NCBI GenBank assembly: GCA_023898345.1
Contig: CP060218.1
Location: 1,087,926 to 1,151,925, forward strand
Origin: Candidatus Woesearchaeota archaeon
GTDB taxonomy: Archaea > Nanobdellota > Nanobdellia > Woesearchaeales > UBA583
Reading direction: 5' to 3'
DNA length: 64,000 bases
Every line of letters begins with the position of its first letter. The stretch's first letter is position 1. Positions 8,282 to 54,240 of the stretch are shown here, one piece after another. Made by a program: the position numbers and the translations under genes. The notes under the pieces were generated by a model. The model did no database searches and was not told the origin of the DNA. It was given only the letters and a program-made list of their open reading frames with translations.

Positions 8282-8348
8282 ATAAAGAAATCGCTAAGAT
8301 ATGGCCATCCCAATCGGAGTAAAGCTTCGGGGTGGGCATGCTAAGGAA
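8282..8348 (+). repeat. Divergent copy of dispersed repeat family REP-A
   Basis: aataaagaaatcgctaagatatggccatcccaatcggagtaaagcttcggggtgggcatgctaaggaag aligns to the REP-A consensus. Confidence 0.6.
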
Positions 8349-9498: not shown

Positions 9499-9618
9499 AA
9501 GTAAAGAAATCGCTGAAATCTGCCTATCCCAATCGCAACAGAGCTGATGGGCATAATACCCAGCCAAGGAATCAAAAATTTGTTAGATGGAATTATTTTT
9601 GATGTGCAGCATATAAGA
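9499..9618 (+). repeat. REP-A short form plus 3' module (ggaattatttttgatgtgcagcatata), running directly into the Ham1 start codon
   Basis: gtaaagaaatcgctgaaatctgcctatcccaatcgcaacagagctgatgggcataatacccagccaaggaatcaaaaatttgttagatggaattatttttgatgtgcagcatataagaATG. Confidence 0.8.
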
Positions 9619-11873: not shown

Positions 11874-11955
11874 GTAAAGAAATCGCTAAAATGTGCCTAT
11901 CCCAATCGGAGCAGAGCTGCAGGGTATATATAATATCCAGCTAAGGAATCAAAAG
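11874..11955 (+). repeat. REP-A short form
   Basis: gtaaagaaatcgctaaaatgtgcctatcccaatcggagcagagctgcagggtatatataatatccagctaaggaatcaaaag. Confidence 0.85.
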
Positions 11956-15008: not shown

Positions 15009-15085
15009 GTAAAGAAATCGCCAAAATGTGCCTATCCCAAACGGAGCAGAGCTGCGGGGTATAATACTCAGCTAAGGAACTGAAA
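15009..15085 (+). repeat. REP-A short form
   Basis: gtaaagaaatcgccaaaatgtgcctatcccaaacggagcagagctgcggggtataatactcagctaaggaactgaaaa. Confidence 0.85.
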
Positions 15086-15144
15086 AATCTTAGTTTTGTT
15101 GAGCTTTGCTGTTTCTTTCTTTTGTGATACCCACGAGACGGGAA

Positions 15145-22397: not shown

Positions 22398-25136
22398 CTA
22401 CTCATAACTAATGCCTTCTTCAAAAAGCTGGAAAACTTCGTCGCCGTTCAAGCTTGTATTCCACACACTGATTTCATCGAGAAGGCAATTCACTTCGTAG
22501 CTGGCTGTGGGGTGGCGGCCAAAGTAAAGCGAAGCTTCGGGGAGTGTATTTTCAGCGCCACTTTTGCTCCCGATAAAAGTGCCGTTAAGGTAGTATTGCA
22601 AACCGGAACTTGTGCTGACGAAGGTGACATGGTGCCAGGTGTTCAATGAGAGTTGGCCAAAGGCATCGTATTCGTATGTCCCGTTTCCAAGCAGCGCATC
22701 TATTGTTCTGTCGCCGGGCCAGTTCAAAACTGTTCCTTGGCCGAGGTATCCGACGTCGGAGTTTGTCACTAAGTATTTGTTGCCGCTGCCGCTGCGAAAG
22801 TTCACCCAAAAGGAAAGTGTTTTGATTGTTCCATTGATGGGAAGATCTAGATAGCTTGTGCCTGATGTTCCGGGGAGGTCAAAGGAGGAGCCGTCAATGC
22901 CCCAACTGTTATAGGTCACGGAGCTGCCTTTGCTGCCGTCATGGTGATAGGAGGAATTGTCGAGTACGGAATTTTCGCCTTTCCAATGACCGAGTAAACT
23001 TGCATTTGCTGGAAGGCCGGAGTTACTTGGTGGTGAGGTTGGTGTGTCAAAGTTTTCCATGCTTGCTGCATAGAGTTGGTAGATGCTGCTTTGGTTAAGG
23101 GAAACACCCCACACACTGATTTCATCGAGAAGGCAATTCACTTCGTAGCTGGGTGTTGGGTGTCTTCCAAGGTAAAGGGAGGCTTCGCTAAGGGAATTGA
23201 TGGCTCCGACTGTTAGGCCTTTGTACGCGCCGTTGAGATAGTACTCTTGGCCTGAGCCTGTGCTGACGAAGGTGACGTAGTACCAGGTGTTCAAAGAGAG
23301 GGTTCCGAAATCATTGAAGGCATATACTCCGTTTCCGAGAAGGGAGTCTATTGTTCTGTCGCCGGGCCAGTTCACAACGGTTCCTTGGCCGAGGTATCCG
23401 ACGTCGGAGTTTGTTACGAGGTATTTGTTGCCGGTGCCGCTGCGAAAGTTCACCCAAAAGGAAAGTGTTTTGATTGTTCCATTGATGGGAAGATCTAGAT
23501 AACTTGTACCTGATGTTCCGGGGAGGTCAAAGGCTGTTCCGAAGGGGCCGGAGGTGGTGTACGTCACGGCTGATCCGAGTGTGGCGCTTTTGTTGTTTGC
23601 TGAACTGTCGAGGGAAGTATTTTCGCCTTTCCAGTATCCGATTAAACCGTAGCTGTTGTTAAAGGGGGAAACTGGGGCAAGTTCTTCTTCGCTTACAAGG
23701 CTGTACTTTTGCGGACAGTCCAAAGCGTTACAGTCGCTTGCACTCACAACAACGAGCCACTGCCCGGACTCGATTTCGCTTGTATTCACGTACACTTGCT
23801 CGACGTTGTTGAGGTGATCGCTTTCGTTACGCCAAGCTTCTCGTGCGGGTGTGTTCGGGTCGAGTGTCCAGGGATAGAATGTTTGTCCGGATGGCGATAG
23901 GAGTTTGAGGTCAAGGTCGTTGATGAGGTTGGCTCCGGGAACGTCGTCCCAAGCTAGCGTTACTTTGAGTGAGCTTTGTGCGCTGATGTTGATTGCGTAC
24001 ACGTCCACGTCAGAGATGTCTGAAATGTTTGCTTCTAGGAATGTTCCGTTGATGATTCGGTCCACAGCTCCTTTGGCGTTGAGTAGTCCGTACCCGTTCA
24101 CGTAGTCGGGGCCGTCGATGATTTCACTCCCGTTGCCGCTACGGTGTAGGTCTGTCGTCGAATCTAGCAAAAGGGCTTTGATTGTCGATGGGAGCGGGTC
24201 TTCGTCGTAGCCGGACTTGTTCCACCGTTCGAGCATAAGCGCGATGGTTCCACTGACGTGTGGCGCTGACATGGAGGTTCCGCTAACAGTTGCATAATTA
24301 TTTGTTCCATTTGTAGTTGTGATTCCATTTCCAGGTGCAACTAAATCAGGTTTTATTCTTCCACCATTTGTTGGACCAAGTCCCGATGTAAAGCTAATAA
24401 CACCACTGTCGTAAACATTACCTACGGAAATGGTGTTTTTTGCAACTGCTTCTGGAGCAATAGTAAAATACCCCGTTGTTAGATTACAGTTTTGAGAATT
24501 ACCAACAGCCCAAACTATTGGAACTTTTCTAGTTGTATAATTTCCATAAACCAATTCATCTATTAATTGAGTAAAAGAATTATATTCTCCCAATACTTCA
24601 CATTGCTTATGTCCATAGGAATTTGAAATTACATTAATACTGTAATTATCAATTCCAGTTTTATAGTTAGATTCTAAGTCATAACTATATCCAAAAGGTA
24701 ATAAATCTTCTTGGTACCCATAAATTTTTGCTTCAGGAGCTACCCCAACATAACTTGAATTTAGATTTCCGTCCCCTATCATTATACCTGCAACCCTAGT
24801 TGCATGGTCTGATGTAGAAGGAGCCAAATTTAAGATTTGTAGTCTAGTTGCAAAATCTGTATGGTTACTCGCAACTTCTCTTTCATATTGTAAAATATTT
24901 ATATTGCTCCCCTGTAAATCATAAGGGTTTTCATAAAGAATAGGAATTTTACTAACATTTTTAGAACTATCTAAAAAATTTTTGCTATTCTGTAATTCAA
25001 CATCAATAAATAATATTTCGTCTGTATTGGATAAGATGAATAATGTTTCTTCATATGTGAGAGAATTTGAAAATGCATTAACTGAAAGTAATAATATCAT
25101 CAGTAATAAAAATTGACTATTTTTAAAATAACTCAT
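22398..25136 (-). CDS. Secreted S8 subtilisin-like serine protease with two C-terminal LamG/concanavalin-like lectin domains
   Basis: Signal peptide, catalytic His (HATRVAGIM) and Ser (GTSMSAPHVSGTIALM) motifs, then two ~190-aa tandem repeats (YLDLPINGTIKTLSFWVNFRSG...CLLDEISVW). The start overlaps the upstream gene by 4 nt. Confidence 0.9.
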   Translation of the reverse strand: MSYFKNSQFLLLMILLLSVNAFSNSLTYEETLFILSNTDEILFIDVELQNSKNFLDSSKNVSKIPILYENPYDLQGSNINILQYEREVASNHTDFATRLQILNLAPSTSDHATRVAGIMIGDGNLNSSYVGVAPEAKIYGYQEDLLPFGYSYDLESNYKTGIDNYSINVISNSYGHKQCEVLGEYNSFTQLIDELVYGNYTTRKVPIVWAVGNSQNCNLTTGYFTIAPEAVAKNTISVGNVYDSGVISFTSGLGPTNGGRIKPDLVAPGNGITTTNGTNNYATVSGTSMSAPHVSGTIALMLERWNKSGYDEDPLPSTIKALLLDSTTDLHRSGNGSEIIDGPDYVNGYGLLNAKGAVDRIINGTFLEANISDISDVDVYAINISAQSSLKVTLAWDDVPGANLINDLDLKLLSPSGQTFYPWTLDPNTPAREAWRNESDHLNNVEQVYVNTSEIESGQWLVVVSASDCNALDCPQKYSLVSEEELAPVSPFNNSYGLIGYWKGENTSLDSSANNKSATLGSAVTYTTSGPFGTAFDLPGTSGTSYLDLPINGTIKTLSFWVNFRSGTGNKYLVTNSDVGYLGQGTVVNWPGDRTIDSLLGNGVYAFNDFGTLSLNTWYYVTFVSTGSGQEYYLNGAYKGLTVGAINSLSEASLYLGRHPTPSYEVNCLLDEISVWGVSLNQSSIYQLYAASMENFDTPTSPPSNSGLPANASLLGHWKGENSVLDNSSYHHDGSKGSSVTYNSWGIDGSSFDLPGTSGTSYLDLPINGTIKTLSFWVNFRSGSGNKYLVTNSDVGYLGQGTVLNWPGDRTIDALLGNGTYEYDAFGQLSLNTWHHVTFVSTSSGLQYYLNGTFIGSKSGAENTLPEASLYFGRHPTASYEVNCLLDEISVWNTSLNGDEVFQLFEEGISYE

Positions 25137-25423
25137 TTTTCATAGCACCTCTCTAGTACACATTGGTGATCTTCATTACAGGAAGTTCCGCAATAATCAT
25201 TAAGGCAAACACTTCCAAAGTTAGTACTACCTTTTTTCTCATGATATAAATTTACACCTTGACAATCTATATAATCAAAGCGACATTCACTATCTTGTTC
25301 ACAATACTGCTTATCCAGCATGTACTTTGGATGTGTTATCCAAGCAGGATTGAGTATTAAGTAGATGGCAATTAAGACAAGAAATATACTTCCCAGAATA
25401 ATTGCTAATTTTTTCTTATTCAT
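25133..25423 (-). CDS. Small Cys-rich membrane-anchored/secreted protein (family member Cys0), translationally coupled to the subtilase
   Basis: 96 aa with N-terminal TM LAIILGSIFLVLIAIYLIL and 10 Cys (YCEQDSECRFDYIDCQG...CLNDYCGTSCNEDHQCVLERC). ATGA stop/start overlap with the subtilase. Confidence 0.65.
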   Translation of the reverse strand: MNKKKLAIILGSIFLVLIAIYLILNPAWITHPKYMLDKQYCEQDSECRFDYIDCQGVNLYHEKKGSTNFGSVCLNDYCGTSCNEDHQCVLERCYEK

Positions 25424-26172
25424 TCTTCATCACCAACATAAACACGTACTGTCAAAGCATGAAGAGTTTGAAGCTGACTTACAACATTCAAACCTTTTTT
25501 CTCAAGTACTATTTGAGCATCATCAAGAGATACATCTTTGTGAATATGAACAGTCAGATACGCATAAGCTTCTTCATCAAGATAATCACTACTTAAGGTA
25601 TTTGCTTGGAGAACAGGGCCAAACTTTTGCTCAAGGCTAAAATCTAAAACTGAACGAATTTTTGTACTCCCTAAAAAAGAGTTTAGTTGCGGATTATAAT
25701 TGAGATTTGAAAAATTTGTTTGGTCTGATTCAAGTACGTACTGAGTCGAACTAGGACTTACGGCTACAAGGTAAGCATTTGCTCCTTGATATTCGAGAAC
25801 ATTTATTCCTTTCTCAAAGAGAACAGATATGTCCTCTTTTGATAAGGGTGTAAAAAATTGAAAGACTAAATAAGACTGAGAATTTGCATTCCTTAGTTTT
25901 TCTCTTAAATCATCATCAATGCCTTCAGTAGGAACGGTTTTGCTTGTTTTTAGAATATACTTTTCTAAAGCTTGCTTTTTGTCATATACTTTTATATTAC
26001 TTAAAGACGAGTTGCTTTCATTCAACTCCTTTACCTCCAAAGATGAATTTTCAGAACTGAGATTTTGAGCGTAAACTAATCCTACAAAGACTAACAAGAA
26101 CAAAAGAATTGTACCTGCGAACAGTTTTCGTATCATAGTTTTATAGACTTTTTTTTTGAAATATTTTTTCAT
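25420..26172 (-). CDS. Secreted hypothetical protein (N-terminal TM/signal); shares the conserved upstream leader block with the Cys-rich genes
   Basis: Start chosen at the internal ATG (MKKYFKKK...MIRKLFAGTILLFLLVFVGLVYA). The ORF-track N-terminal extension (FKTNHIKK) is translated promoter sequence shared with 26645..27082 and 27485..27871. Confidence 0.5.
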   Translation of the reverse strand: MKKYFKKKVYKTMIRKLFAGTILLFLLVFVGLVYAQNLSSENSSLEVKELNESNSSLSNIKVYDKKQALEKYILKTSKTVPTEGIDDDLREKLRNANSQSYLVFQFFTPLSKEDISVLFEKGINVLEYQGANAYLVAVSPSSTQYVLESDQTNFSNLNYNPQLNSFLGSTKIRSVLDFSLEQKFGPVLQANTLSSDYLDEEAYAYLTVHIHKDVSLDDAQIVLEKKGLNVVSQLQTLHALTVRVYVGDEE

Positions 26173-26289
26173 GCTTTTTACTCTCCAAATTCTTTTCTTT
26201 ATATGATTTGTCTTGAAAACTGAGGTTATGCTAAAAAGAATTACAAACAAAAATATTATTGCTTTCATTTTGCACGCACACATGAATTA

Positions 26290-26564
26290 TTTATTGAACA
26301 CTTATTATTGACACAATTTGAAATTCCACAAGTAACTATTTTGCAAATTCCTGTTTCTTCATAATTTGTTTGGTAAACATTGATTGGTTCACAAGTAGCA
26401 AATTGGAAACAATCACTATCTTGCTCACAATACTACTGTTTATCCATCATATCTTTCGGATGAGTTATCCAAGCAGGATGTACAATTACATATATTACCA
26501 ATGTCATAAGCAAAATACTTCCAACTATGAAGCCGATTTTTTTTGAATTTATCTTAACCATTTT
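26290..26564 (-). pseudogene. Paralog of the Cys-rich protein family interrupted by an in-frame TAG (3-nt insertion)
   Basis: Manual translation gives MVKINSKKIGFIVGSILLMTLVIYVIVHPAWITHPKDMMDKQ*YCEQDSDCFQFATCEP...CVNNKCSINNSCVRAK. Versus 25133..25423 the only disruption is an inserted tag codon (cagTAGtattgt vs cagtattgt). Confidence 0.55.
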
Positions 26565-26644
26565 TTTGAATATTTTTTTTGAAATTCTTTTCTTTATATG
26601 AAAACAAAGAAAGAGAGAAAAAGTAAGGTTTTTTTCTATTCATT

Positions 26645-26959
26645 TTAACTTTCCCCTCCTGCCTGTAAGAGGACAGCACATTTATTGTCAGACCCACAGG
26701 AAATTACTATCCCCGAATTGCTACACTCCGTAGTATTCCAGTTATTAGAAAAATATTTATTGCCTAAAGAACAATTTGTAGAGATACAATCATCCCCTTT
26801 TTCGCAGTACAAAGGGTCGTTCAAATACCTCACATCAATGCCCATGTAATACGCTTTGATATTATTCTGATACATAAAACCAAGGGCAATAAGGCACAGC
26901 ACAATAACTATGCTCCCAACAAAAATCTTTTGTTTCTCACCTATGTTTATCTTAACCAT
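26645..26959 (-). CDS. Small Cys-rich membrane-anchored/secreted protein (Cys1)
   Basis: Start at internal ATG (MVKINIGEKQKIFVGSIVIVLCLIALGF...). Shares the DVRYLNDPLYCE..DC motif with the paralogs. 9 Cys. Confidence 0.6.
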   Translation of the reverse strand: MVKINIGEKQKIFVGSIVIVLCLIALGFMYQNNIKAYYMGIDVRYLNDPLYCEKGDDCISTNCSLGNKYFSNNWNTTECSNSGIVISCGSDNKCAVLLQAGGES

Positions 26960-27074
26960 TTTTTTGAATATTCTTTTTGAATTTTTTTTCTTTATATGAT
27001 TTGTCTTGAAAATTTTCACCTTTTTTTGTTTTTTCAAAGCGTAGTTTTTTCTGTATGAAATATCTCTACAATTC

Positions 27075-27262
27075 GCTCCCATTCACGTACACTTGCTCGA
27101 CGTTGTTGAGGTGATCGCTTTCGTTACGCCAAGCTTCTCGTGCGGGTGTGTTCGGGTCGAGTGTCCAGGGATAGAATGTTTGTCCGGAGGGTGAGAGGAG
27201 TTTGAGATCTAAGTCGTTGATGAGGTTGGCTCCGGGAACGTCGTCCCAAGCTAGCGTTACTA
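27075..27262 (-). pseudogene. ~190-bp internal fragment of the subtilase gene (copy of ~23774..23960, about 93-95% identity)
   Basis: Encodes LAWDDVPGANLINDLDLKLLSPSGQTFYPWTLDPNTPAREAWRNESDHLNNVEQVYVN, identical to subtilase residues ~390-450. No start and no catalytic residues. Confidence 0.8.
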
Positions 27263-27484
27263 ATTCCTTTTTTTGACTAAAAATTAGAATCTCCAATAAT
27301 TACCTCTGTATCTTGTTTAGATGAGTAAGGAGTAAGCTGAATTTTTTGTAAGTTTGTGGCATTTGTTTCATTTCTCGAAAAAAGGTTAAGAGATTCATTT
27401 TGTTCGAGATATTATCTGAAGCTAAAATAGGCCCAATAATTAAGTGAAAAAACATTGTTATGAAGTAAAATAGGAAAGAGGTTT

Positions 27485-27811
27485 TCATTTTTGATATTTT
27501 TCCTCCCAACAAACTGGACTATTATTTGCTACACATTTATTGTTAGAACAAGATTTATCACAAACCTCAAGTTGACATTGTGAATCACCTTGCGTATTGA
27601 AACGATTGATAACAGTGCAGCGTTCTATAACACAATCTTCTTTGCTTTCGCAATAATAGGGGTCCAGTAAATATCTTACATCTACACCTTTATACTCTGC
27701 TTCGATATGATGTCTGAAACTAAATATGCCAACTAGCAGTAATAAAAATAAACTTACTAGACAAAATATTACTTTTTTCTCCTTCAATTTTTTTGAATTT
27801 ATCTTAACCAT
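27485..27811 (-). CDS. Small Cys-rich membrane-anchored/secreted protein (Cys2)
   Basis: Start at internal ATG (MVKINSKKLKEKKVIFCLVSLFLLLLVGIF...). Contains the DVRYLLDPYYCESKEDC motif and 11 Cys. A TATA-like tcatataaag lies ~30 nt upstream, conserved across the family. Confidence 0.6.
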   Translation of the reverse strand: MVKINSKKLKEKKVIFCLVSLFLLLLVGIFSFRHHIEAEYKGVDVRYLLDPYYCESKEDCVIERCTVINRFNTQGDSQCQLEVCDKSCSNNKCVANNSPVCWEEKYQK

Positions 27812-27924
27812 TTTTTTGAATATTTTTTTTGAAATTTCTTTCTTTATATGATTTGTCTTGAAAATTTGCAAAACATTTTTTTTTTCAAAGCGTAGTTTTT
27901 TCTGTATGAAATATCTCTACAAAT

Positions 27925-28125
27925 TGCTCCCATTCACGTACACTTGCTCGACGTTGTTGAGGTGATCGCTTTCGTTACGCCAAGCTTCTCGTGCGGGTGT
28001 GTTCGGGTCGAGTGTCCAGGGATAAAATGTTTGTCCTGTGGGCGAGAGAAGTTTGAGGTCAAGGTCGTTGATGAGGTTGGCTCCGGGAACGTCATCCCAA
28101 GCTAGTGTTACTTTGAGCGAGCTTT
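27925..28125 (-). pseudogene. Second ~200-bp internal fragment of the subtilase gene (copy of ~23774..23985)
   Basis: Same boundaries at the 5' side as fragment 27075..27262 (both begin ...ctcccattcacgtacacttgctcgacg). Lies upstream of Cys2. Confidence 0.8.
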
Positions 28126-28479
28126 GTTTTTTCTTTGATTTTGAGGAAGCATTTTATGGGAAAAGAGAATCTGATATTGGGTATTTGCACTATAGATTAG
28201 AATTCTCAGAGGAGGACTTGAAATATGTCGTCTTATTTACAGACTATGACTTATGGAAAATCTTGAATTATGCTGTCCTTGTCGGAATTCGAAAAGTTGC
28301 AAATTCACCTGAAGATGAATTGAGGAAAAGAATTGAGAAATTGGGAAGAATGTATGAAAATTTAGAAAAGTTGACAAAGCTAAGAAAAAATACTCAGACC
28401 TGAACTTCTTCTTTTTCTTTGTGCTCTTCAAGTTTCAAACAACAATTCATTTAAAGCAAAAAAAACTTCTTTCTTTGTC

Positions 28480-28551
28480 GCACCTGTAGCTCAGTGGTAG
28501 AGCGCTTGCCTCGTAAGCAAGAGGTCGGGGGTTCAAATCCCCCCAGGCGCT
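28480..28551 (+). tRNA. tRNA-Thr (anticodon CGU)
   Basis: Manual cloverleaf: acceptor GCACCTG/CAGGCGC (one A:C mismatch at 3:70), D-arm GCTCAGTGGTAGAGC, anticodon stem CTTGC/GCAAG with loop CT-CGT-AA, T-arm GGGGGTTCAAATCCCCC, discriminator T, no encoded CCA. Followed by a T-rich tract. Confidence 0.85.
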
Positions 28552-32290: not shown

Positions 32291-32394
32291 ATATTCATTT
32301 CTCTTATCCAAACAAGTTCAAAAAATCTTCTTTTATTCAACTCCAAAAAATCTTTATAAATATAAAGCTGTGTCCATTAACTGCACAGTGTAAA

Positions 32395-37778: not shown

Positions 37779-37824
37779 TAGATTATTGGTTAAAAAAATA
37801 TCTTATAAAATTATCTTTTTTGAA

Positions 37825-37894
37825 TTCCTTAGCTTGGTATATACCCCGTAGCTCTACTCATATCAGGATAGGCACAATTTAGCGATTTCTTTAC
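37825..37894 (-). repeat. REP-A short form (inverted orientation), ~47 nt upstream of the pilin-like gene start
   Basis: The reverse complement reads gtaaagaaatcgctaaattgtgcctatcctgatatgagtagagctacggggtatataccaagctaaggaa. Confidence 0.8.
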
Positions 37895-38157: not shown

Positions 38158-39110
38158 GTGTGCTAAGACATAATTGATGAACGCTTAAAGTTTTGGATGT
38201 ATCTTTCAGCTGGAACTTTATAGTAAATCCCTTGATGAATTCGTTTCTCGTTATAAAAGGCAATGAATTCATCGAGAGTATTAAACCTTTCGTCGAATTC
38301 TAATTTGTAGGTTCCAAACCATCTTTCTACCTTCCCATTTGTTTGTGGGTGATTCACCCTGCCCAGAATGTGCTTAATGCTATTCTGGTTACAAAATCGA
38401 GTAAAATTATGTTTTGGATCACCTCGATTCTGAGTATTTGTGAAATGAGTTCCATTGTCTGTAAGTATCTCTTTGGGCTTGCCAGATTTGGCAATCGCAT
38501 TCTGGAATGCCAGAATAGTGTTTTCGGTTGTTGCATTTTCGAAGTATTCTGCATGAATAAGAAAACGAGAATAATCATCTAGAAACGCAATGATCTGTTT
38601 ACCTGTAAATGGGCATTGTGACCAGTCTGTGTGCCATAATTCGTCTTTAGAGCTACGCTCATATCTGACGAACTTTATTTGCTCAGGACGAGTTCTCTTG
38701 TTTAATTGGAGACTGTTCTTTTTCAGAACTTTCTGTATTTGGCGTTCGGAAACTCCAAACCCTTCTTCATCAAGAAGAAGCTTGATTCTTTGTGACCCCA
38801 TTTTGTATTGCTTCCAGATTTTGACAACTAAGTCTTGGAAGCTTTGATTTATTTCTTTTTCTTTTGGACCTCGTTTCTGAGGCTCAACAAAAGTCGCACC
38901 ACGTCTCTTGTATGCTTCAAACCAAGAGCTAAGAGTAGATTTTGGAACTTCTCTGGTCTTTGAGAGATAAGAAAGAGAATACCAACCTCCTTCAAGAGTT
39001 TTCACACAACGAAGTTTGAACGTTTGATTGTATGTTTTTTGTTTCATTTCTCAAAATAACGAGAAATTCATCAAAAAAGGAGGCGTTCAATAATTATGTC
39101 TTAGCACACT
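38158..39110 (-). mobile_element. IS481-family insertion sequence (~953 bp) with 24-bp terminal inverted repeats
   Basis: Left end tgtgctaagacataattgatgaac matches the reverse complement of the right end gttcaataattatgtcttagcaca (1 mismatch). Flanking near-duplicate ttgaattc(a/g)ttgg (putative target-site duplication). Single DDE transposase ORF inside. Confidence 0.85.
38163..39047 (-). CDS. DDE transposase, integrase-core (rve) domain, IS481 family
   Basis: N-terminal HTH, then catalytic D (HTDWS), D (LTDNG) and E (TNGKVER) with typical spacing. The ORF ends 5 nt from the IS terminus. Confidence 0.85.
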   Translation of the reverse strand: MKQKTYNQTFKLRCVKTLEGGWYSLSYLSKTREVPKSTLSSWFEAYKRRGATFVEPQKRGPKEKEINQSFQDLVVKIWKQYKMGSQRIKLLLDEEGFGVSERQIQKVLKKNSLQLNKRTRPEQIKFVRYERSSKDELWHTDWSQCPFTGKQIIAFLDDYSRFLIHAEYFENATTENTILAFQNAIAKSGKPKEILTDNGTHFTNTQNRGDPKHNFTRFCNQNSIKHILGRVNHPQTNGKVERWFGTYKLEFDERFNTLDEFIAFYNEKRIHQGIYYKVPAERYIQNFKRSSIMS

Positions 39111-41832: not shown

Positions 41833-41975
41833 GTAGAGAAATCGCTAAGATTTTCCTATCTCAATCAGAGCAGAACTCAGGACATTACTGCAATTTTCAA
41901 GACACGAGTTCTAACTCTCAGCGAGATGGTCGCACAGTGCTGCGGAACATAATGGCCAGCTAGGGAATTAAAAAT
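41833..41975 (+). repeat. REP-A long form (divergent)
   Basis: gtagagaaatcgctaagattttcctatctcaatcagagcagaactcaggacattactgcaattttcaagacacgagttctaactctcagcgagatggtcgcacagtgctgcggaacataatggccagctagggaa. Confidence 0.75.
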
Positions 41976-42171
41976 CGAAATTTTTCGAAATTCTCTATTT
42001 AATTATACTTAAGTCTGTTGCATAATCCTTAGATAAAAATTAAGACTTTTAAATCTGAGATTTAAAGTGTATAATAAAATGACATCTCCCATGTCGTTAC
42101 ACACCTGTTTTTACTCTGAAGTTATGCAGTTTTTACTGATAAACTTTTAAATAAGCTTTGCCTTGCTTTTC

Positions 42172-44745: not shown

Positions 44746-44890
44746 ATAAAGAAATCGCTAAAATGTGCCTATCCCAATCGGAGCAGAGCTCCGGGGCATT
44801 ATGGCAATTTTCAAGACGCGATTTCTTTACTCCCAGTTGGGTGGTCGCAGCAGAGCTGCGGGGTATAAATACCCAGCTAAGGAATTAACT
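44746..44890 (+). repeat. REP-A long form (reference copy): 5' module, internal perfect hairpin ccggagcagagctccgg, inverted copy of the 5' module, then tail
   Basis: ataaagaaatcgctaaaatgtgcctatcccaatcggagcagagctccggggcattatggcaattttcaagacgcgatttctttactcccagttgggtggtcgcagcagagctgcggggtataaatacccagctaaggaa. gtaaagaaatcgc and gcgatttctttac form a 13-bp inverted repeat. Confidence 0.85.
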
Positions 44891-45901: not shown

Positions 45902-46086
45902 GTAAAGAAATCGCTAAAATGTGCCTATCCCAATCGGAGTAGAGCTCCGGAGCATTACGACAATTTTCAGGACACGAGTTCTAACTTCCAACTTGTGGTG
46001 GTCGTAGCAAAGCTGCGGAGTATAATACCCAGCTAAGGAATCAAAAATTTGTTTGCTGGAATTATTTTTGATGTGCTGTATATCAA
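45902..46086 (+). repeat. REP-A long form plus 3' module
   Basis: gtaaagaaatcgctaaaatgtgcctatcccaatcggagtagagctccggagcattacgacaattttcaggacacgagttctaacttccaacttgtggtggtcgtagcaaagctgcggagtataatacccagctaaggaatcaaaaatttgtttgctggaattatttttgatgtgctgtatatc. Confidence 0.85.
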
Positions 46087-54002: not shown

Positions 54003-54169
54003 AGGTATTAAGTCGAAAAGGAGATCTTGAAATTAGCTATGTTGTTAAATTGCTTTTAGCAATTATTGCACTTATTGTTCTTATCGTTGTTATTACGATT
54101 GTTATTAAAGGAGAATTCGATAATCAAGGTGGCATTATTGAAAACATTTTTTCTTCTATTGGGAAGTAA
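53999..54169 (+). CDS. Candidate 56-aa membrane microprotein overlapping the alaX stop (ATGA)
   Basis: Manual translation MKVLSRKGDLEISYVVKLLLAIIALIVLIVVITIVIKGEFDNQGGIIENIFSSIGK. Below the 60-aa ORF-track cutoff. Coordinates ±1. Confidence 0.4.
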   Translation: MKVLSRKGDLEISYVVKLLLAIIALIVLIVVITIVIKGEFDNQGGIIENIFSSIGK

Positions 54170-54240
54170 TTCCTTAGCTGGGTATTATACCCCGGAGCTC
54201 TGCTCCGATTGGGATAGGCACATTTTAGCGATTTCTTTAC
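54170..54240 (-). repeat. REP-A short form, inverted orientation
   Basis: ttccttagctgggtattataccccggagctctgctccgattgggataggcacattttagcgatttctttac is the reverse complement of the consensus. Confidence 0.85.

Follow-up and report, generated by a model that had tools for sequence, protein, structure and literature searches.

A subtilase operon with membrane-anchored Cys-rich proteins and probable relics of earlier copies in an uncultivated Woesearchaeota archaeon

Architecture of the locus

Positions 22398–28127 of the window, the 64-kb stretch analysed here out of the 1.54-Mb genome of a Woesearchaeota archaeon, carry on the minus strand a gene for a subtilase (peptidase family S8) together with genes encoding small, membrane-anchored Cys-rich proteins, and on balance the region is probably one intact, clade-specific surface-protease operon accompanied by what is left of earlier, decayed copies. 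In the intact operon, a promoter is followed by three genes, prop (a putative detached subtilase pro-region), cys1 (a Cys-rich protein) and S8, and as both gene junctions (prop/cys1 and cys1/S8) overlap as ATGA, the three proteins are expected to be produced together. A previous interpretation made from the letters of the DNA (hereafter the sequence-only reading) had already noted the ATGA overlap of the cys1 stop and the S8 start, and its view of the region as decayed repeats of a module joining Cys-rich genes to a subtilase is supported by the appearance of the locus. The prop gene, which sits between an interrupted Cys-rich copy and cys1, was absent from that account. From 5' to 3' on the minus strand, the elements are frag2, a 26-mer, cys3, a 62-aa open reading frame (ORF), frag1, the 26-mer, cys2, a stub, the 3' half of a promoter, the interrupted Cys-rich copy, the 26-mer, prop, cys1 and S8, where frag1 and frag2 denote two S8-derived pieces. 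Taken jointly, the anatomy and history of the locus can be stated with good confidence. Proteins identical to cys3 and to the 250-aa prop are found as H6500_05575 and H6500_05560 in a Candidatus Woesearchaeota metagenome-assembled genome (MAG) with a 1.54-Mb contig. The individual features are as follows:

22398..25136, minus strand: S8 subtilase gene, 912 aa, with a cleavable signal peptide, an S8 catalytic domain, a PPC-like beta domain and two Laminin_G_3 lectin domains
22398..24284, minus strand: GC-rich 3' two-thirds of the S8 gene, with a GC content at third codon positions (GC3) of ~0.58 vs 0.16 upstream
25133..25423, minus strand: cys1, 96 aa, signal-anchored, type A (NPAWITHPK..YCEQDSEC), ATGA overlaps on both sides, matched by the hidden Markov model (HMM) of the family at E 3e-24
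25420..26172, minus strand: prop, 250 aa, with a signal peptide, a linker rich in N-glycosylation sequons and two alpha/beta repeats
26194..26219, minus strand: promoter 26-mer TTTTCAAGACAAATCATATAAAGAAA before prop, TATA-like box ~30–38 nt ahead of the ATG
26265..26561, minus strand: interrupted Cys-rich copy, MVKIN-type start, type-A ectodomain, in-frame TAG at 26433–26435; its 5' flank holds only the 3' half of the promoter block
26554..26643, minus strand: 13-codon, signal-peptide-like stub, ATG 1 nt past the cys2 stop, encoding MNRKKPYFFSLSLFS... and running into the next promoter
26645..26959, minus strand: cys2, 104 aa, type B (DVRYLNDPLYCEKGDDC), six ectodomain Cys
26946..27262, minus strand: conserved block B, comprising frag1, spacer, promoter 26-mer (26987–27012) and the first cys2 codons
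27066–27262, minus strand: frag1, the last 60 codons of an S8 gene, then GSEL and TAG
27300..27488, minus strand: orf70 (the 62-aa ORF), ATGA-coupled to cys3, signal-peptide-like start, then SDNISNK
27485..27811, minus strand: cys3, 108 aa, type B (DVRYLLDPYYCESKEDC), eight ectodomain Cys, AlphaFold2 (AF2) model with pLDDT 89
27789..28127, minus strand: conserved block A, comprising frag2, spacer, promoter 26-mer (27839–27864) and the first cys3 codons
27917–28127, minus strand: frag2, the last 65 codons of an S8 gene, then GSNL and TAG

Three intact same-strand Cys-rich genes, as described by the sequence-only reading, were confirmed at 25133–25423, 26645–26959 and 27485–27811, and all four Cys-rich copies possess the N-terminal hydrophobic anchor ascribed to them. 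The fourth copy indeed contains one in-frame stop, but it spans 26265–26561 and not 26290–26564; its TAG is a 3-nt insertion relative to cys1 (CAG-TAG-TAT vs CAG-TAT) and is also found in an independent UBA MAG contig. The Cys content had been overestimated at 9–11 per protein; the four copies in fact contain 8, 7, 9 and 8 Cys, of which 8, 6, 8 and 8 lie in the ectodomain. Similarly, the motif DVRYL.DP.YCE is common to cys2 and cys3, but cys1 and the interrupted copy instead have NPAWITHPK..DKQYCEQDS.C, and the motif shared family-wide is [KR]Y..[DN]..YCE.D.DC. The cys1 allele of another assembly (P0003) is identical up to ...LYHEKK and is then frameshifted near the A-run (GAGAAAAAAGG) of the window cys1, which may reflect a sequencing error or homopolymer length variation.

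The 26-mer TTTTCAAGACAAATCATATAAAGAAA occurs in three exact copies, before cys3, cys2 and prop. Its TATA-like box lies 30–38 nt from the ATG, and since the housekeeping gene gatB and the gene of the T2SSE ATPase share this spacing, the "leader" is most readily understood as an archaeal promoter with a short 5' untranslated region; a sigma-70 promoter/terminator scan is uninformative for archaeal DNA. The conserved TATA-containing leader had been assigned to every Cys-rich copy, which is correct for cys3 and cys2, but the remaining exact 26-mer precedes prop instead of cys1, and the interrupted copy retains the 3' half only.

Origin of the S8-derived pieces

The existence of two S8-derived pieces was verified, as frag1 and frag2 differ from S8 positions 23784–23963 at 6 and 8 sites, respectively, over the 180 nt before their shared junction (~96–97% identity). 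They had been thought to start at one and the same nucleotide and to be internal stubs cut from the adjacent gene, and neither proposal holds: frag2 extends ~16 nt further 5', the point in common is the 3' junction (...VYVN followed by GSEL or GSNL and a stop codon), and the pieces correspond to S8 3' termini with their own stops. The undisplaced state is found in L005, a 2.6-kb contig of a close relative (binned under a Bdellovibrionales MAG, presumably wrongly), which encodes a prop homologue, an S8 ORF, the spacer, the promoter, an MVKIN-type Cys-rich gene and a second Cys-rich gene. Its S8 ORF ends in ...NNVEQVYVNGSEL (VYVNGSEL and stop) and is followed by the same 62-nt spacer, the same promoter and the MVKIN-type gene; positions 1721–2061 of L005 are 94% identical to window positions 28127–27789, and positions 1736–2052 are 94% identical to window positions 27261–26946. 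Because L005 shows the same arrangement with the S8 gene attached, we read frag1 and frag2 as what remains of the 3' end of a short S8 variant, in each case complete with a stop codon and followed by the spacer and the promoter of the next gene, and the junctions in frag1, frag2 and L005 appear to be one and the same ancestral junction. The short form would be the derived one, since the S8 proteins of the more distant relatives L026 and L029 as well as that of the window run past the short-form end and complete the PPC-like domain.

Over the same 180 nt, S8, frag1, frag2 and L005 differ by 13 synonymous changes and a single changed codon (binomial P = 4e-7 vs neutral), which rules out neutrally decaying duplicates of the resident S8 gene. 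As the changes are almost all synonymous, the S8 ends seem to have diverged within working S8 alleles, or to have been copied or overwritten from them. Nor does a simple tandem amplification, as suggested by the sequence-only reading, describe the pattern, in that the S8-end/promoter block is 90–100% identical between copies and the attached Cys-rich genes only ~40%. The conserved block is GC-rich, and a structured RNA was considered and rejected: folding z-scores were +0.26 and -1.56, Rfam returned tRNA only, and the variable sites are synonymous codon positions. A viral origin was likewise rejected, both the family motif and the S8 fragment being absent from a search of IMG/VR.

In the proposed history, repeated homologous recombination with related alleles would remodel the locus, and cys2 and cys3 would be displaced variants, the surviving orphans of earlier units, each preceded by the S8 remnant of the previous unit (the last ~190–205 nt, stop codon and spacer). 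The small reading frames after the orphan genes can be placed in the same scheme: orf70 is probably the remnant of a downstream secreted-protein (prop-like) gene, and the stub after cys2 is read as what is left of a gene formerly coupled to cys2. Some points weigh against this reconstruction. Neither orf70 nor the stub has significant homology to prop or S8, and in the absence of such homology it is their position that marks them as parts of decayed units; the reconstruction does not account for the nearly coinciding 5' ends of the two fragments; and additional copies may exist, as just 64 kb of the 1.54-Mb genome were covered.

A further alternative, that the array is an assembly artefact caused by chimeric joins or by repeats collapsed or duplicated by the assembler, is of negligible probability. 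In favour of an artefact, short-read contigs do end at the repeats, where the UBA scaffold is interrupted by N gaps. However, the cys3-frag1 and frag2-cys3 junctions are present at 97.5–99.6% identity in four independent assemblies (L001–L004, namely one scaffold of a UBA MAG and three short contigs from metagenomes, which also reproduce the TAG), the outer (upstream) junction of frag2 is identical in one independent MAG, and contig L005 of the relative contains the S8-spacer-promoter-cys junction. The artefact was rejected on these grounds, and the frag2-cys3-frag1 order in independent short-read contigs bears out the sequence-only reading, which had treated the array as genuine.

The subtilase and its detached pro-region

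The 912-aa protein belongs to Peptidase S8 by profile (PF00082, E 6.6e-40, 137.7 bits vs a cutoff of 21.8) and further matches Laminin_G_3 (E 2.7e-30) and, weakly, PPC. Its closest solved relative is KP-43 (1wmd), and PDB subtilases match it with E values as low as 1e-14. The protein contains both the His motif (SDHATRVAG) and the Ser motif (GTSMSAPHVSG), and in an alignment with BPN' the position of the catalytic Asp32 of subtilisin is occupied by Glu85 (motif ILQYE, in the region of window positions 24880–24884); the Pfam S8 match starts only at profile position 51, after this region. Glutamate is found at the Asp32 position in all four homologues examined (window S8, L005, L025 and L026), and this S8 clade may use a Glu-His-Ser triad. 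Compared to subtilases of the KP-43/SubHal type (1wmd, 5fax), the window enzyme shares the beta-sandwich domain directly after the S8 catalytic domain, the His and Ser motifs and the best sequence match in the PDB (E 1e-14), but it differs in its Glu at the catalytic Asp position, its detached pro-region, its two extra Laminin_G_3 domains and a compositionally chimeric gene.

The chimeric composition is seen in the GC3 of the S8 gene, which is 0.16 in codons 1–284 and 0.58 in codons 285–912, with the change point at the codons of the GTSMSAPHVSG motif (window position 24284). The same switch at the Ser motif occurs in L005 (nt 1407) and is missing from the homologues of L025 and L026. This points to a chimeric S8 gene, in which the 3' two-thirds would have been replaced by homologous recombination with DNA of a higher-GC relative.

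The prop gene has homologues in L026 (E 3e-27), L027, L012 and L005, where the prop HMM matches the ORF directly upstream of S8 (E 4e-35). An HMM built without L025 matches residues 10–218 of the fused S8 precursor encoded by that contig (E 1.6e-5 among 1393 ORFs), placing the prop-like region between the signal peptide and the catalytic domain of an S8 precursor. Since the match covers the N-terminal ~210 residues of this precursor, prop is identified as a putative subtilase N-terminal pro-region that is detached as a secreted protein of its own in the window, L026 and L027. Among known families and structures, prop had no Inhibitor I9 Pfam match and nothing at E < 0.01 except for a chance DUF, and a profile of five prop homologues gave nothing at E < 0.9 against the PDB; word-index homology searches with cys3 and prop returned self-matches alone. 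A single-sequence AF2 model of prop (no alignment used) has a pLDDT of 43.

Within the S8 gene, two segments are duplicated in tandem (22581–22880 vs 23229–23528, also 22461–22550 vs 23109–23198); they correspond to the two Laminin_G_3 domains, lie 648 nt apart and are 86% identical in DNA. The 912-aa product (22398–25136) has, unlike its neighbours, no called gene in the public gene index, which may be due to another start or to annotation as a pseudogene.

A family of Cys-rich ectodomains in DPANN archaea and CPR bacteria

When the profile of the Cys-rich family was searched exhaustively against 1.84 billion protein cluster representatives (E < 1e-3), 41 of them matched (E 1e-22 to 1e-3); where the sources name a host, it belongs to Woesearchaeota, Norongarragalinales, Roizmanbacteria or Saccharibacteria, i.e. 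to DPANN archaea or bacteria of the candidate phyla radiation (CPR). A typical member has 90–110 aa with a Lys-rich start, one hydrophobic helix of ~20 residues, the motif [KR]Y..[DN]..YCE.D.DC and six invariant Cys. The defining pattern of an N-terminal transmembrane anchor, the motif and C-x5-C-x4-7-C...C...C-x2-N-x-C applies to the four window copies as well as to the 41 representatives, and nearly all family sequences form singleton clusters. The architecture varies: some members have two or three domains, seven matches occur in a 1742-aa protein, the Cys-rich domain of a 139-aa protein (P0029) is joined to a separate C-terminal Kunitz/BPTI domain (28.7 bits vs a Pfam cutoff of 21), and a 644-aa protein (L018, 9998–11929) combines a membrane-proximal Cys-rich domain with a C-terminal M23 peptidase.

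The AF2 model of cys3, based on a 32-sequence alignment (pLDDT 89), comprises a helix at residues 7–41, two beta-hairpins and a short C-terminal helix, and it lends support to the earlier proposal that the paralogs form one family with a common fold. In Pfam and NCBIfam, at most 2 of 32 members matched any one entry, all such matches being weak, and no model in these databases covers the family. The family profile had no match in the PDB at E <= 10, and a fold search of the cys3 model against the PDB was also negative, in which the transmembrane helix may have interfered. Known inhibitor scaffolds (Kunitz, Kazal, WAP, TIL, SSI and others) matched the Cys-rich proteins neither by sequence profile nor by fold, and literature searches retrieved no description of the family or of the operon. 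The Cys-rich proteins are thus to be regarded, as far as sequence and model comparisons reach, as an undescribed family of small ectodomains in DPANN and CPR that is without a Pfam, NCBIfam or PDB relative.

Conservation of the operon in related lineages

The operon or its fused or permuted forms were found in at least five diverged relatives. In L026 (GC 28%), prop (E 3e-27), a Cys-rich gene and S8 (E 3.5e-129) follow each other with overlapping junctions, and the same order and overlaps are present in L027; compared to the window, these contigs have ~68% DNA identity and 30–53% protein identity. In L025, a Cys-rich gene is followed after 2 nt by one fused protein with a prop-like region before the S8 catalytic domain. 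L029 contains the S8 stop, 61 nt, a Cys-rich gene and then a coupled prop-like start, and L012 encodes prop, a Cys-rich gene, the promoter, another Cys-rich gene and a coupled signal-peptide ORF, followed by an insertion sequence (IS). Among the window, L026 and L027, divergence is similar for the Cys-rich protein (37–45% identity), prop (30–54%) and S8 (38–53%), as expected for co-inherited partners. The association of Cys-rich homologues with S8 genes proposed by the sequence-only reading accordingly stands for close relatives, in the arrangements prop-cys-S8 (L026, L027), cys-proS8 (L025) and S8-cys (L005, L029), but not for distant members, which lack an S8 neighbour.

Recombination at the locus

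The conserved S8-end/promoter block of ~320–340 nt is 90–100% identical between the window copies and L005 and includes the first 5–8 codons of the Cys-rich gene; from ~15–20 nt into the coding sequence, DNA identity drops to 20–50%. Several Cys-rich genes are mosaics. The cys2 product is 95% identical to P0004 up to YCEKGDDC and 31% beyond, and the interrupted copy compared to the L005 protein has 82% identity in the N-terminal part and 29% in the C-terminal part. The L005 protein and P0007, on the other hand, share 79% and then 100%, and one ectodomain is therefore found behind two N-terminal/promoter contexts. The promoter and the first 57 codons of cys2 are 97% identical to L031, where the ectodomain is different and the context unrelated; the two loci share just these 223 nt, with unrelated flanks. 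The locus thus appears to be a hotspot of homologous replacement among related lineages, in which recombination would keep the S8-end/promoter block near-identical while swapping the ectodomain-coding parts, and would also have replaced the 3' two-thirds of S8.

Mobile DNA is found in related loci. An IS lies at window positions 38159–39108 (rve integrase-type ORF at 38163–39047, minus strand, Pfam rve 3.8e-15; a 26-nt inverted match at its end); in L012, a 99.7% identical copy lies directly beside the Cys-rich array, and L025 has a related rve gene adjoining its Cys-rich gene or array. Diversification by a diversity-generating retroelement was considered and rejected, as no reverse transcriptase domain occurs in the window ORFs, no template/variable repeat pair is present, and the variants differ throughout and not at adenines alone.

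In principle, the near-identical blocks could be handles for a programmed exchange of the Cys-rich cassette linked to the protease operon, by analogy with orphan cdiA-CT/cdiI or rhs-CT modules and with silent cassettes of the pilS type. Such switching would suit blocks of 90–100% identity flanking cassettes that are only ~40% identical, as well as the one ectodomain that is found behind two 5' contexts (L005 vs L012), and pieces of the upstream gene are retained as in orphan modules of the contact-dependent inhibition (CDI) and Rhs systems (PMC4927057). However, the fragments are direct repeats of the resident S8 gene, and recombination between them would delete prop, cys1 and the catalytic domain; each orphan copy has a complete promoter and start codon of its own, so that none would be silent; no recombinase is present at the locus; and two independent population assemblies share one arrangement. 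We therefore consider programmed switching very improbable. By comparison, the mechanism behind the locus is ordinary, consisting of recombination and decay, and what is unusual for an uncultivated archaeon is the clarity of its anatomy and evolutionary record.

Function of the Cys-rich proteins

We tentatively favour, at somewhat less than an even chance, a role of the Cys-rich proteins as cognate, membrane-tethered partners of the protease, either as an inhibitor/self-protection factor or as a dock. The products of prop, cys1 and S8 would all act outside the cytoplasmic membrane, where cys1 would expose a disulfide-type ectodomain of ~60 residues on an uncleaved signal anchor. S8 pro-regions are known to fold and transiently block their protease, and prop would do the same; the anchored Cys-rich ectodomain would contact the protease at the cell surface and restrain or dock it. 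In support of a partner role, the translational coupling of the Cys-rich gene with an extracytoplasmic protease is conserved, and one family member is fused to a Kunitz/BPTI domain.

Several observations speak against such a partnership. The Cys-rich gene has no fixed place with respect to S8, being found between prop and S8, upstream or downstream. The neighbourhoods of distant family members (96 ORFs) revealed no recurrent partner and no adjacent S8, and the contexts without S8 include a Norongarragalinales array, CPR bacteria and other Woesearchaeota; in the Norongarragalinales contig, three detectable paralogs lie in a row of small unannotated genes without a protease. Finally, the M23 fusion is explained equally well by a surface-binding or stalk module of general use and by a protease partner. 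The Cys-rich domain could accordingly be an independent surface-binding or adhesion domain of DPANN/CPR episymbionts under host-driven diversifying selection, whose adjacency to S8 reflects a recombination-prone island of surface genes. The occurrence in DPANN archaea and CPR bacteria (Roizmanbacteria, Saccharibacteria) without a nearby S8, the tandem-domain and fusion proteins, the singleton clusters formed by nearly every family sequence, the exchange of ectodomains as mosaics and the many other large surface proteins in the window are all in line with this alternative. On the other hand, at least five contigs that have diverged to 30–53% protein identity share the ATGA-type coupling of a Cys-rich gene to prop and/or S8, and among the close members looked up nearly every judgeable contig has S8 or prop beside the Cys-rich gene, for which reason an independent module is regarded as rather unlikely.

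Alternatively, in line with one suggestion of the sequence-only reading, which also named inhibitors and adhesins, the Cys-rich proteins may be precursors of disulfide-rich toxins, antimicrobials or signals that are freed from their anchor by the co-encoded subtilase, much as LanP-type leader peptidases process their substrates or proprotein convertases cut defensin- or conotoxin-like precursors. As might be expected of such precursors, variation is concentrated in the mature region, where the Cys scaffold is fixed, and spares the N-terminus and promoter; paralogs also follow one another in tandem, and the translational coupling to S8 occurs in several lineages. Yet no cleavage motif is conserved between anchor and domain, the helix of the AF2 model continues from the membrane straight into the domain, and arrays of the family exist without any S8. 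The domain also precedes M23 or Kunitz domains as an N-terminal anchored module, and because of this placement a stably tethered domain is favoured. Moreover, the 64-kb window contains no modification enzymes, dedicated exporter or immunity gene. On the whole, release from a precursor is regarded as distinctly unlikely. A cluster for a ribosomally synthesized and post-translationally modified peptide (RiPP) with a LanP-like processing step was rejected, as Pfam annotation of the large ORFs of the window revealed no modification or export genes; a soluble RiPP leader was rejected as well, the N-terminus being a Lys-rich segment plus a hydrophobic helix of ~20 residues without a conserved site before the domain.

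The proposal of a cognate membrane-tethered partner can be extended to one in which DPANN episymbionts use a Glu-His-Ser subtilase on the surfaces of hosts or competitors, with the Cys-rich proteins as its polymorphic membrane-tethered subunits for specificity or self-protection; the S8-end-bearing orphans would be the archaeal counterpart of CDI/Rhs orphan effector/immunity arrays, retained and exchanged through recombination to track a changing target. We regard this extension as quite improbable.

Attachment to other cells is the way of life of DPANN archaea and CPR bacteria, of whose surface machinery, to our knowledge, almost nothing is known. The Cys-rich ectodomain family described here spans both groups and has a confident fold model without a known relative, and in one Woesearchaeota clade it is tied to a conserved operon with a subtilase carrying Glu at the Asp position and a putatively split-off pro-region. 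The locus further offers a record of recombination in an uncultivated archaeon, with a gene apparently rebuilt at its active-site motif, relic gene ends and swapped ectodomains. If the Cys-rich proteins prove to be cognate inhibitors or docks, they would constitute a new class of inhibitor or anchor; if they have no partner role, the locus would still be a good marker of a fast-changing island of surface proteins.

Comparison with known systems

Protease operons with a cognate small partner are known, such as popC-popD of Myxococcus (subtilase and inhibitor) and staphopain-staphostatin. As in these systems, the small gene of the window operon is tightly, here even translationally, coupled to the protease, the pairing is kept in relatives, and, as in protease-inhibitor operons, a pro-region can serve as chaperone and temporary inhibitor. 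In contrast to them, the partner is an extracytoplasmic, anchored Cys-rich domain without similarity to inhibitor families, the pro-region is encoded separately, the small gene lying between it and the gene of the catalytic domain, and binding and inhibition are putative. Precursors of conotoxins, defensins and some bacteriocins/RiPPs combine a conserved leader with a hypervariable mature region on a Cys scaffold, and the Cys-rich genes resemble them in their conserved N-terminus and promoter, six invariant Cys, divergent sequence between the Cys and tandem paralogs. They differ in that variation arises partly by segment exchange (mosaics) and not by point substitution alone, and in an N-terminus that resembles a permanent membrane anchor; any release or bioactivity would be hypothetical.

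In the orphan cdiA-CT/cdiI and rhs-CT/rhsI arrays of CDI and Rhs systems, each displaced module keeps a fragment of the upstream gene (PMC4927057). The window array is similar in having tandem displaced variable modules, each with a conserved piece of the upstream gene at its 5' side; transposases are associated in related loci, and the array can be interpreted as a fossil record of serial replacement through recombination or horizontal transfer. The dissimilarities are that the Cys-rich genes are separate with their own promoters, the S8 pieces end in their own stops without in-frame fusion, no toxin/immunity pair is present, the host is an archaeon, and the head gene of the orphan array is lost in the window. 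Of the defining features of CDI/Rhs arrays, the retained upstream-gene fragment is the only one found.

Flanking features and other observations

The outer edge of the rearranged region is flanked by two features on the plus strand:

28128..28403, plus strand: 5'-truncated ORF remnant without a start codon, abutting frag2, which cuts its 5' end
28480..28551, plus strand: tRNA-Thr(CGU), flanking the array

The ORF remnant had no match in Pfam and is probably a truncated gene at the outer edge of the rearranged region, beside tRNA-Thr. The UBA strain has ~1.4 kb of extra DNA next to radA (L001 2136–3575 vs window 32303–32310), with ORFs of 218 and 65 aa that lack a Pfam match, a strain-level indel.

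An intergenic repeat with the core GTAAAGAAATCGCTAAAATGTGCCTATCCCAATCGGAGCAGAGCTCCGGGG...TATAATACCCAGCTAAGGAAT is dispersed over the window in at least nine copies in 64 kb. Its copies are either short (~80 nt) or, where they contain an internal insert, long (~145 nt), and Rfam returned no match to it:

11874–11950, 15009–15087, 9501–9578, 54167–54240 (minus strand), 37814–37894 (minus strand) and 8283–8332: dispersed repeat copies
44747–44888, 45902–46047 and 41833–41979, and also L005 71–219: dispersed repeat, long form

The repeat could be a miniature inverted-repeat transposable element or an element resembling repetitive extragenic palindromes, or it could represent a family of small RNAs or terminators.

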